The notes under the pieces: model-generated
What the model was told of the DNA's origin: nothing
The model's database searches: none
The model's input: only the letters and a program-made list of their open reading frames with translations
Program-made: the position numbers and the translations under genes
Part shown: piece after piece, positions 53,037 through 56,034 of the stretch
How the letters are laid out: each line of letters opens with the position of its first letter
Position numbering within the stretch: the stretch's first letter is position 1
Assembly: GCA_018920255.1 (NCBI GenBank)
Contig: JAHLMR010000002.1
Span: 1-63,498, forward strand
DNA: 63,498 nt
Direction: 5' to 3'
Source of the DNA: Candidatus Aenigmatarchaeota archaeon
Lineage (GTDB): Archaea > Aenigmatarchaeota > Aenigmatarchaeia > Aenigmatarchaeales > JAHLMR01

Positions 53037-54317
53037 GTGAATATGAATATGGCAATAAATAAACCACACTTAAACCTTGTTACAGTTGGACATGTAGATC
53101 ATGGAAAATCAACATTAGTTGGAAGATTACTATATGATTCAAAAAATATTCCAGAAGAAGAAATGAGAAAATTAAGAGAAAAAGCAAAAGAATTAAAAAA
53201 AGAAACATTTGAGTTTGCTTTTGTTATGGATAGATTAAAGGAAGAACAACAAAGAGGAGTTACTATTGATATTGCTCATCAAAAATTTACAACACAAAAA
53301 TATTATTTTACTATAATTGATGCACCAGGACACAGAGATTTTGTTAAAAATATGATTACTGGTGCAAGTCAGGCAGATGCTGCAATTGTTGTTTGTTCTG
53401 CAAAAGAAGGAGTTCAAGAACAAACAAGAGAACACGTTTTCTTAATTAAAGTTTTAGGAGTTAAACAACTTATTGTTGCAATAAATAAAATGGATGCTGT
53501 AGGTTATGAAAAATCAAAATTTGAATCAACAAAATCAGATATGGAAAAACTTTTGAAATCTGTAGGTTATGACACAAGTAAAATATTATTCATACCAGTA
53601 TCAGCATATCAAGGAGATAATGTTTATAATAAAAGTACTAATATGCCATGGTATAATGGACCAACAATATATGAAGCACTTGATTTACTTTCTGTTCCTG
53701 AACTTCCAATAAATAAGCCATTAAGAATTCCAATTCAAGATGTTTACTCAATAAAAGGAATTGGAACAGTACCAGTAGGAAGAGTTGAAACAGGAGTAAT
53801 GAAAGTAAACGATACTGTAGTTATAATGCCAGGAAATCTTAAGGGAGAAGTAAAATCAATAGAAATGCATCATGAGGCAATACAAGAAGCAAAACCAGGA
53901 GATAATATAGGTTTTTGTATAAGAGGAATTGATAAGGAGAGTATAAAACGTGGTTATGTTGTTGGAAAACCAGATGATCCACCAACAGTTGCAAAAGAAT
54001 TTATAGCACAAATTATAGTATTACAACATCCAAATGTTATAGCTAAAGGTTATACTCCAATATTCCACTGTCACACTGCTCAAGTTGCATGTAAAATAGT
54101 AGAAATTCAAAAGAAAATAGACCCAAAAACTGGAGTAACACTTCAAGAAAATCCAGATTTTATAAAAACTGGAGATGCAGCAATTGTAAAATGTGTGCCA
54201 CAACAACCACTTGTAATTGAATCTGTTAAAAAAATACCAGAATTAGCAAGATTTGCTGTGCGTGATATGGGTCAAACAGTTGCAGCAGGAGTTTGTTTAG
54301 AAGTTACTCCTGCTTAA
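53037..54317 (+). CDS. tuf: translation elongation factor 1-alpha (aEF-1A)
   Basis: [21 protein letters not shown]. The likely true start is the ATG at 53049 ([10 protein letters not shown]), 8 nt after the GAGGTGA SD. Confidence 0.95.
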
Positions 54318-54371
54318 TTTTTTAATTTTTTAGTAGTTAATTATTTAAAGTTTTCTAACCAAATTTAAATT

Positions 54372-55412
54372 ATGACATCTTTTTTGGAAAGAATTTTAAA
54401 AAGAAAAAAGAAGGAAGAAGATTTAGTTGATATACCTCCTTATAAAAAATCAGAAAAACTCAAAATTTGGATGCCACCTCTAGACTCTTCAAAAGAAGAT
54501 TTAGTTGATATACCTCCTTATAAAAAATCAGAAAAACTCATAATTTGGATGCCACCTCTAGACTCTTCAAAAGAAGATTTAGTTGATATACCTCCTTATG
54601 AGAATCAAAAAAAGACTCTTCAGAAAAACTCATAATTTGGATGCCACCTCTTTCAGAGAGAAAACATATTTCTTTTAATTTAAAAGACGCGGTTCTTGAA
54701 CTTCATTTTCCATCTTCTAAAAAAGAAATAAATGAATCTCATTATAAGACTTTTCAAGTTAACCCCATTAATTATTTTTGTTTGGGTGAGACTGATGAAT
54801 TTGGAAAACCCATATCACAATATGAAATAATATTACATTTACCTAGTTATCCTTTAGAAACAGCACATAGAAGAATAGTAGATATAAGAAAAAATAATGA
54901 TAATAATGAAAAGTATTTTTATTTTATTGGTAATAAACAAATTTTTTTAAAAAAAATATGACAATTTTTTAAAAGGAGAAGTTCACTCGTTTGTTAAAGA
55001 TGTAGTTTTTATAGATGATATTATAAAATATTTTGAGGAAAACGAAGGGAAATCTATTAAAGAATATATTAATGATTCTCCATATTTATATGAGGTACAC
55101 CCAGGATTTGATGCCTTTCTATTGAAGTATTTGAAAAAAGAAAAAGATAATCAATCAACTTTGAGTGTTTGTCATACACATCCACAGAGTTTTGGAACCC
55201 GTTTAAGTAATTTAGACATTGGTGCATTTGAGAGTGAATTAAGATATGATAAAATTTTGGGTGTGTGTGATTTCTATGGTAAAAACTATGCTTTTTATCC
55301 AATACCATCTACTTTGAGAGGAGAAATCTCACTACAAAGAGAAACAGTATATTTGGATAATTTTCATAATCCAATAACAGTATATGATAAAATTATAGAA
55401 ATTCAACTTTAA
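54372..55412 (+). pseudogene. repeat-containing JAB/MPN (JAMM-like) metalloprotease gene broken into three frames
   Basis: The three pieces are 54372-54635 (frame 0), 54641-54961 (frame 2), and 54951-55412 (frame 0, no start codon until the TTG at 55122). The JAMM-like motif CHTHPQSFGTRLSNLD is in the last piece. The breaks coincide with a scrambled repeat unit and a T7A8 tract. Confidence 0.5.
54417..54651 (+). repeat. 78-bp tandem repeat: 2 full units plus a rearranged third
   Basis: Units start at 54417, 54495 and 54573. Units 1 and 2 differ at 1 nt. Each encodes EDLVDIPPYKKSEKL(K/I)IWMPPLDSSK. Confidence 0.9.
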
Positions 55413-55448
55413 AAATCTTTAAATATTTTAATTTTCTTTTAATTTTTT

Positions 55449-55769
55449 ATGCAAAAAGCAAGAATTAAATTAATGAGTACAGATATTAAAAAAATAGAAC
55501 AGGTTTGCAATGAATTAAAAGCTATCTCTGAAAAATTTGGAGTCGTTATGCGTGGTCCTATTCCTCTTCCAACTAAAAAATTAAAAGTAGTTACAATGAA
55601 AACTCCTTGTGGAGATGGAACAGGTCATGGAAATGCTACATGGGATAAGTGGGAAATGAGAATTCATAAAAGAATTATTGATATTGCTGCTGATGAAAGA
55701 ACTTTAAGACAAGTAATGAGAGTGCCAATACCAGATGATGTTACTATAGAAATTTCTTTAAAAGACTAA
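55449..55769 (+). CDS. rps10: ribosomal protein S10 (uS10)
   Basis: MQKARIKL...GPIPLPTK...HKRIIDI. Confidence 0.95.
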
Positions 55770-55789
55770 TTTTTATTATATTAAAATTA

Positions 55790-56034
55790 TTAATAATTTC
55801 TGGTAACCCTCGAATAATATTTATAATTACGACTATCCATGCAAACCAATAACAACAAACATATAGGATTTCTATTAACTAAATAATCCAGGTAAGAAAA
55901 AACAAAAAGTAATGATTAAATAATTGATCTTCAATTATATCAAACATTGCACCAAAATTTTGTTATACAATGATTTTCTTGCAATATAGCCATCGAGCCA
56001 ATCAAAGAAAAATTGCAAAGTTTAAATTTTTCAT
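55790..56034 (-). pseudogene. decayed CDP-alcohol phosphatidyltransferase remnant
   Basis: The minus strand reads FFDWLDGYIARKSLYNKI, then after a 1-nt frame slip in an A4T4 run GAMFDIIEDQ. Together that is D-x2-D-G-x2-A-R-x8-G-x3-D-x3-D. It is followed by an in-frame stop and hydrophobic segments in another frame. The N-terminal ~40 aa are missing. Confidence 0.55.

Follow-up and report, generated by a model that had tools for sequence, protein, structure and literature searches.

Homopolymeric tracts within coding genes have been proposed to act as a general prokaryotic switch (PMC2831843); in AT-rich bacteria, selection against slippage-prone runs shows a length threshold, and RNA polymerase slippage on runs of 8–9 A has been documented (PMC1088944). 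Split genes may also be expressed as such; i.e., fucA1 of Sulfolobus solfataricus is decoded by programmed −1 frameshifting at A_AAA_AAT (PMC1616953). Here, we describe a gene split into three reading frames at positions 54372–55412 of a 63,498-nucleotide (nt) stretch of DNA (the window) from a Candidatus Aenigmatarchaeota archaeon (assembly GCA_018920255.1, contig JAHLMR010000002.1, herein C18). For this locus, an earlier note made from the sequence alone had proposed (i) a recently inactivated deubiquitinase- or peptidase-like gene of the JAB/MPN type, (ii) a phase-variable contingency locus, or (iii) sequencing errors. We find that the three open reading frames (ORFs) are pieces of one gene, that this gene is intact in sibling genomes, and that the length of a T7A8 tract within it is a genuine strain polymorphism. 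The window's allele has probably been inactivated by replication slippage in one strain lineage, and the intact product is most likely a very divergent JAMM-type protein.

A single gene in three frames

The source genome, that of a DPANN archaeon, comprises 552 kb in 25 contigs (~25% GC; 94.6% complete). Between the genes for archaeal EF-1alpha (53037–54317) and ribosomal protein S10 (55449–55769), one coding region is broken into frames 0, 2, and 0 by a tandem repeat and the T7A8 tract (Table 1). By rough estimate, a random frame at ~25% GC contains ~0.09 stops per codon, which gives a chance of p < 1e-4 for the open stretches of 119 and 153 codons and of ~3e-4 for that of 88 codons; since such lengths are not expected by chance at this A/T content, all three stretches are coding now or were so recently. 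The composition of the gene is native (27% GC), and neither a paralogue nor an extra copy of its 78-bp repeat unit was found elsewhere in the genome. An alternative genetic code was ruled out, the breaks being frame changes rather than in-frame stops.

An exact look-up placed the 96- and 106-amino-acid (aa) ORFs of the window in one 90%-identity cluster. Its representative, P0003, is a 351-aa hypothetical protein of Candidatus Aenigmatarchaeota archaeon with four NCBI accessions from metagenome-assembled genomes (MAGs); the other members are a second 351-aa protein (P0005), a 213-aa partial sequence (P0006), and a 113-aa protein from another contig (P0004). The sibling MAGs likewise carry the label Candidatus Aenigmatarchaeota and originate from hot-spring metagenomes. 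Both 351-aa proteins run continuously through the two breaks (…PPYEESKKDSSEELIIWMPPLSERKH… and …QIFLKKYDNFLKGEVHSF…), with the downstream part of the intact sequences reading …FIGNKQIFLKKYDNFLKGEVHSF…. The three ORFs are thus pieces of one gene, as the earlier note had modeled before such intact orthologues were at hand, and they were not found separately conserved in relatives.

Within the window, the TAA stop of the first segment is in frame solely owing to the first break. The second segment has 119 open codons, and its ATG at 54641 is, as previously read, simply the Met of the repeat motif IWMPPL. The TGA stop of this middle frame lies at 54959–54961, i.e., 3 nt beyond the T7A8 run and not inside it as the note had placed it, the position given for the run itself being correct. 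The third segment has its first start codon, a TTG, at codon 58, in keeping with the 57 startless codons noted before.

Beyond this cluster, the gene is without homologues; i.e., it is confined to one species-level cluster. Neither phmmer against 1.84 billion representatives nor word-indexed searches with the C-terminal piece and with P0003 returned anything outside the gene's own 90% cluster. No homologue was found in 40 genomes of the same order, in JGI metagenome contigs, or by tblastn in phage records (best E=1), and PHROGs and PADLOC gave no family match. No relative was present among PDB sequences, the best match (MEMO1, E=0.08) being taken as noise.

Tract-length polymorphism at the second break

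Tract lengths were read from Logan contigs, which drop minor variants, of four hot-spring metagenome runs (X1–X4) compared over 54000–55800; X3 and X4 hold small shares of the stretch, with parts uncovered in both. The A8 state recurs in X1, where a 1541-nt contig (depth 205) spans 54622–55800 with 0 differences and 0 gaps, as well as in P0004, which is encoded on a separate 8256-nt NCBI contig and ends …FLKKI. The A7 state was found in (i) X2, another sample of X1's study, the main contig of which (depth 50.7; 13 single-nucleotide polymorphisms) has one base fewer at 54949, (ii) X4, from another study, in a 243-nt contig with 1 base different from the window and the base at 54949 left out, and (iii) six NCBI proteins that read through in frame (P0003, P0005, P0006). 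The A7/A8 difference is a genuine polymorphism between very close strains, and the fusion that the earlier note had expected from one fewer A is exactly the T7A7 state of these other samples and MAGs.

Across the 552-kb genome, T7A8 ranks as the longest composite A/T tract; of 132 A/T runs of at least 8, 116 lie inside long open frames. A genome-wide scan for frame transitions at A/T runs yielded no other credible homopolymer frameshift; since, in addition, intact ORFs lie densely packed throughout the remaining window and genome, a platform-wide homopolymer problem is excluded. Four further candidates from the scan (C3:11012-11651, C12:2557-3098, C22:12831-13419, and C5:7952-8703) were rejected as antisense or shadow frames or as normal neighbors. 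Genome-wide counts of A/T homopolymers fall from 1156 runs of 7 to 128 of 8 and just 4 of 9 or more, a drop-off that agrees with the length threshold described for AT-rich bacteria (PMC1088944).

Could the tract instead be a switch, with T7A7/8, and perhaps the array of 78- and 93-bp units, toggling a peptidase reversibly and the A8 allele being its OFF phase? Very close relatives differ in tract length, the coding-region tract having ON and OFF lengths among them, and of the 243 bases of X4's A7 contig, 242 agree with the window, also at the sites where the X2 haplotype departs from it. The tract's standing as the longest composite run of the genome, the variation of the repeat-unit form between strains, and the general switch proposal for such tracts (PMC2831843) also count for this alternative. 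Conversely, no heterogeneity of the tract within a sample was seen in the Logan contigs, subject to their loss of minor variants, and A7–A8 runs are common in the coding regions of this genome. Taken with the first break and the substitution pattern described below, these points lead us to regard phase variation as unlikely and a recently inactivated allele as the better account of the window.

The repeat array and the first break

TRF describes the array as 2.6 copies of period 78 with 95% match, and the first two units have the same coordinates and single K/I-coding difference as had been reported for them. In the third unit, 6 nt (AAAAAA) are exchanged for the 20 nt GAGAATCAAAAAAAGACTCT, for a net gain of 14, which equals the exchange of 7 for 21 nt described previously. 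Comparison with the intact alleles changes the meaning of this exchange: their natural array consists of a long (31-aa), a short (26-aa), and a long unit (MTSFLERILKRKKKEKDLVDIPPYEESKKDSSEKLKIWMPPLDSSK / EDLVDIPPYKKSEKLKIWMPPLDSSK / EDLVDIPPYEESKKDSSEELIIWMPPLSERKH…), such that the third unit of the window is the natural long form minus one base and not, as the note had suspected, a product of shuffled repeat pieces.

The GAGAA state at this position was found in the window's assembly alone. Among the contigs listed, the first break is crossed in X1 (depth 276) and X2 (depth 84) only, and in both an additional A behind 54600 restores PPYEESKKDSS, the reading that the intact proteins have there. 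The main X2 contig begins at the break with five unaligned letters, as expected for the extra-A allele, and the 87-aa ORF produced by the break is a singleton cluster in a collection of 15 billion proteins. Logan contig boundaries at 54416/54417, 54573/54574, and 54632/54633 coincide with allele and repeat-unit differences; the array is therefore polymorphic, and short-read graphs fragment there. On balance, and by a modest preponderance, we favor an assembly artefact or a minor or rare variant as the source of the first break, with a second true lesion as the alternative.

Further forms of the array were seen in the metagenomes. X2 holds a depth-14 contig at 54387–54444 that is identical to the window's short-form first unit (…KKKEEDLVDIPPYKK), beside the dominant P0003-like strain at a depth of ~50; at least two repeat-array alleles therefore coexist in one sample. 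In X3, which is from a different study, a low-depth (2.8) contig has an in-frame 15-nt insertion, TCAGAAAAAGACTCT, after CCTTATAAAAAA at 54527, yielding a third unit form (…PPYKKSEKDSSEKL…); the repeat thus has several long-form variants.

Were both breaks artefacts of assembly or sequencing, the gene would be intact in the organism itself. The first break does lie within a near-identical tandem repeat at every boundary of which Logan contigs break, the contigs that bridge it carry the in-frame allele, and just 88% of the words sampled from the stretch are present in X1. The second break, however, recurs in an independent contig set (depth 205; 0 differences) and again in the NCBI contig encoding P0004, and the remainder of the 552-kb genome is without homopolymer frameshifts, which together make an artefactual origin of both breaks very improbable. 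Of the three explanations first offered, error (or a rare variant) thus fits the first break best, and recent inactivation best fits the second.

Programmed recoding of the split gene would require a −1 slip at an A_AAA_AAG heptamer near the first break and, within A8, a +1 shift of the ribosome or slippage during transcription. The heptamer has the right frame and direction, AAA_AAA_A at 54950–54956 permits re-pairing of tRNA-Lys in +1, and both the archaeal precedent (PMC1616953) and the bacterial slippage data (PMC1088944) count in favor, correctly framed slippery sites being a necessary condition for recoding without sufficing for it. Against this, two different rare events must coincide, and all full-length orthologues are single-frame at both sites. 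A stimulatory element was likewise not seen, although no search was aimed at one. Programmed shifts are conserved among orthologues. Low-level slippage could rescue the gene accidentally, yet this would be no program; because the orthologues are unsplit, any rescue of the broken allele would be accidental, and we consider programmed recoding to be the least probable of the explanations weighed here. The first break, if real, would moreover be a non-repeat 1-nt deletion that slippage could not revert, a further point against a reversible switch.

A predicted JAMM-type domain

The intact 351-aa protein comprises three N-terminal proline-rich repeats of 26 or 31 aa, a middle region, and a C-terminal domain of ~200 aa (residues 150–351). 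All alleles carry a Glu (E185, within NNEKYFYFIG, or E208) followed by H273-T-H275-P, S284, and D287. In the window, the candidate catalytic Glu (GAA, 54908–54910, equivalent to E185 of P0003) falls in the middle segment, and the codons for H273 (55173–55175), H275 (55179–55181), S284 (55206–55208), and D287 (55215–55217) fall in the third. In a MAFFT alignment with nine Mov34/MPN proteins, E185, H273, H275, P276, S284, and D287 occupy invariant columns. The motif sits among a hydrophobic strand, HxHP, …LS..D(I/V), a helix, and a hydrophobic strand ending in D, with a Glu-x6-Gly strand upstream. Its spacer from HxH to Ser measures 8 residues, one more than the canonical 7, as the earlier note had counted; in bona fide Prok-JAB proteins of the same phylum, it measures 7–9.

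Structure-based searches point the same way. The ESM Atlas model of P0003 is of medium confidence (predicted template-modeling [TM] score of 0.51); searched with residues 150–351, it matched JAB/Mov34/Rpn11 clusters at TM scores of 0.55–0.62 over ~150 aligned residues, with ten of ten structure rows spanning approximately residues 150–351 and most belonging to the JAB/Mov34/Rpn11 families. In the Atlas feature search, 22 of 30 matches were in the Prok-JAB set, and a search with the C-terminal piece gave a weak pointer to the same JAB clan.

Profile methods were far less responsive. Pfam and NCBIfam gave no match for the window's pieces or for intact P0003, and when the genome, six-frame translation included, was searched for the JAB, Prok-JAB, and DUF4329 families, the locus stayed blank. 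The profile comparison that the note had recommended hence returned no significant hit. Using hhalign, the motif region alone was aligned with seven same-phylum Prok-JAB proteins (probability ~10%, P ~0.003), and nine Mov34/MPN proteins gave a probability of ~11% (P ~0.003). AlphaFold2 models reached a predicted local distance difference test (pLDDT) score of 38.6 from the single sequence and 34.8 with a JAB-seeded, hypothesis-conditioned alignment, both being of too low a quality for fold comparison.

That the protein is an orphan of some other fold in which the HxH…S..D residues arose by chance is an explanation orthogonal to those for the breaks. It draws on the lack of any significant family hidden Markov model (HMM), PDB-sequence, or profile match, on pLDDT values below 40 even with JAB sequences aligned, on the 8-residue spacer, and on the Atlas labeling its own matches as leads for a model that scores 0.51. 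Against it stand the concerted structure matches and feature-based indications of one clan, the expected strand and helix context of the motif with its upstream Glu strand, and a chance of only ~5e-4 (rough estimate) for such a motif in one 351-aa protein. We regard a different fold as the less likely, if tangible, alternative, and the C-terminal domain as most likely MPN/JAMM, an assignment that we hold to be reasonably probable on this modeling. The JAB/MPN call of the note is partly supported: the JAMM residues are present and the Atlas model matches JAB clusters, whereas HMM searches gave no hit and the AlphaFold models were poor. The zinc site would most likely consist of E185 (or E208), H273-x-H275, S284, and D287, from which metalloprotease chemistry may be surmised.

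Recognizable Prok-JAB proteins are rare in the phylum, being present in 7 of 151 genomes sampled (loci L006-L012), and no other JAB was found in the 94.6%-complete genome. Likewise, that genome gave no match to ubiquitin-like ThiS/MoaD (PF02597), and for E1-like proteins (PF00899) the only match was to a Rossmann region of 38 positions and stayed below threshold (22.7 bits vs. a cut-off of 28.1). With no ThiS/MoaD-like protein, true E1, or other JAB found, the deubiquitinase role that had been entertained, or a deSAMPylase role, has no support.

Evolution and gene neighborhood

Between the window and the X2 haplotype (which equals P0003), the gene shows 9 nonsynonymous and 2 synonymous differences, i.e., a ratio of nonsynonymous to synonymous polymorphism (pN/pS) of 1.07; the adjoining parts of the EF-1alpha and S10 genes show 1 and 4, respectively (pN/pS 0.07), the contrast being significant at these small counts (Fisher p=0.036). 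The near-neutral pattern indicates that the gene is weakly constrained or diversifying, and a pN/pS of ~1 would suit a gene of small worth to selection better than a switch that is kept in working order. The middle segment of the window equals that of intact P0005 apart from K91E. The five amino-acid differences that set the window apart from both intact alleles all lie in the C-terminal segment, downstream of the frameshift, and their presence on the A8 allele is a further argument against phase variation.

In archaea, the spacer between EF-1alpha and S10 is usually short. Across 27 genomes of the same order, compared with the window's spacer (54318–55448), it measures 16–170 nt in 11 and 675–1360 nt in 6, where unrelated small ORFs occupy it (membrane-like, PAS-like, and others; loci upstream of S10 L014, L019, L021, L023, L028, and L034); in the remaining genomes, EF-1alpha is not within 1.5 kb. 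The spacer thus looks like a variable insertion site, an apparent hotspot for accessory genes in the order. The A/T-rich box before the gene (Table 1) could possibly be its own promoter for a leaderless transcript; a similar box, CTTTAAATATTTT, lies 20–32 nt before the S10 ATG.

Adjoining the split gene downstream, a relic of a CDP-alcohol phosphatidyltransferase gene (motif DG..AR...G...D...D) occupies 55790–56034 on the minus strand. Its parts …DWLDGYIARK… and …FGAMFDIIEDQL… are in different frames that meet at a AAAATTTT run, where a slip has split the gene, and additional stops surround them; the relic indicates that this genome does shed genes via small A/T-run indels. No tRNA gene was detected by ARAGORN in the 63-kb window.

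Table 1. Coordinates of the segments, repeat units, breaks, and candidate signals at the split-gene locus (window numbering).
Feature	Position	Strand	Remarks
Candidate TATA-like A/T-rich box, AATTATTTAAAG	54340..54351	+	21-32 nt 5' of ATG; sequence reading
Segment 1, frame 0: N-terminus and repeat array, 87 aa	54372..54635	+	aligns with residues 1 to ~80 of intact P0003/P0005
Repeat unit 1, short form, 26 aa, EDLVDIPPYKKSEKLKIWMPPLDSSK	54417..54494	+	intact alleles carry the 31-aa long form here
Repeat unit 2, short form	54495..54572	+	1 nt apart from unit 1 (K/I)
Repeat unit 3, long form, one base short here	54573..54651	+	…PPYEESKKDSSE(K/E)LIIWMPPL in intact alleles
Break 1, one A lost, frame 0 to frame 2	54600..54604	+	GAGAA vs. 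GAAGAA elsewhere
Segment 2, frame 2: repeat end, middle region, start of predicted MPN domain	54602..54961	+	
A_AAA_AAG heptamer, formally -1-slippery into frame 2	54608..54614	+	frame 0; native Lys-Lys codons, probably incidental
Break 2, T7A8 tract	54942..54956	+	with A8, …FLKKI and stop; with A7 (other strains), …FLKKYDNFLKGEV in frame
Segment 3, frame 0: remainder of predicted MPN domain	54951..55412	+	153 codons

Discussion

Our preferred model is as follows. Replication slippage in one strain lineage would have lengthened T7A7 to T7A8 within a dispensable, fast-evolving, and probably JAMM-type gene. The predicted domain begins near residue 150, within the middle segment, and the A8 frameshift falls inside it; a stop would thus be introduced at codon 201, after K200, between the Glu strand and the HxH strand. 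At most, the A8 allele would give a product of ~200 aa containing the repeats and the middle region. Because the frameshift cuts the predicted MPN domain, no active peptidase is to be expected from this allele by standard decoding, and we infer loss of function in the window. As for the first break, two options are open to the model: it is an erroneous or rare reading of a repeat that is difficult to assemble, or the gene is decaying and has truly been hit twice. As a whole, the gene would be a dispensable accessory in a spacer whose accessory genes vary from relative to relative. We consider this model probable, and the window's allele to be a recently inactivated one, with an OFF-state allele being less likely.

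Several points weigh against this model. X1 may be the MAG's own source sample, in which case its A8 contig is not fully independent (P0004 being a separate contig), and the five C-terminal changes could reflect drift after inactivation or, equally, a recombinant haplotype. The JAB assignment, derived from the motif and one medium-confidence language-model structure while HMM libraries are silent, is a weak link. Tract states read from contigs alone also leave some limited room for a reversible ON/OFF switch. In its broadest form, such a proposal would have T7A7/8 and the variable 26/31-aa array jointly act as the reversible switch of a divergent JAMM-type peptidase in the EF-1alpha/S10 spacer, i.e., an archaeal contingency locus, possibly host- or virus-linked, within an order-wide hotspot for fast-evolving accessory genes; this we deem more doubtful still.

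For annotation, the three 'hypothetical' ORFs represent one disrupted gene and should be merged, and the 351-aa sibling form may be marked as a protein that is probably MPN/JAMM, though very divergent. The lesion itself is of an ordinary kind; the locus would also provide a small, clean case of strain-level homopolymer-slippage inactivation in a 0.55-Mb symbiont-type archaeal genome. At a broader scale, the normally tight EF-1alpha/S10 junction appears to act as a variable insertion site in this order.

With JAMM/MPN+ metalloproteases (PF01398 JAB and PF14464 Prok-JAB; Rpn11, CSN5, and the archaeal Mov34/MPN proteins P0009-P0016), the predicted domain shares the Glu…His-x-His…Ser-x-x-Asp arrangement in its usual secondary-structure context, and its model over residues 150–351 superposes on JAB/Rpn11 clusters at the TM scores given above. 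It differs from them in lacking HMM-level similarity, in its 8-residue instead of 7-residue spacer, in a Glu-to-HxH distance of 88 (E185) or 65 (E208) residues, and in its N-terminal proline-rich tandem repeat, as well as in the absence of a ubiquitin-like or E1 partner from its genome and of homologues outside one species-level cluster.

Like fucA1 (PMC1616953), this is a two-frame gene of a hot-spring archaeon with an A-rich slippery heptamer that is correctly framed at the first break. In fucA1, however, the split is the functional state, whereas the orthologues here are unsplit and the first break is unreproduced in other assemblies. In common with transcriptional slippage on A/T runs (PMC1088944), the genome has a sharp length cut-off, and A8 is at the edge of the slippage-prone range; the present reading is at the DNA level alone, and slippage would at best supply a minority of corrected transcripts.

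To our knowledge, contingency loci are hardly documented in archaeal symbiont-type genomes, and this locus, if switching proved true, would be a rare documented one in Archaea. With homopolymeric-tract contingency loci (PMC2831843; PMC3315296), it shares a 1-base indel in a coding A/T run that toggles the frame between close strains; it differs from them in that the tract-length difference is known between strains, from contigs, and in that the gene appears weakly constrained rather than selected for switching.

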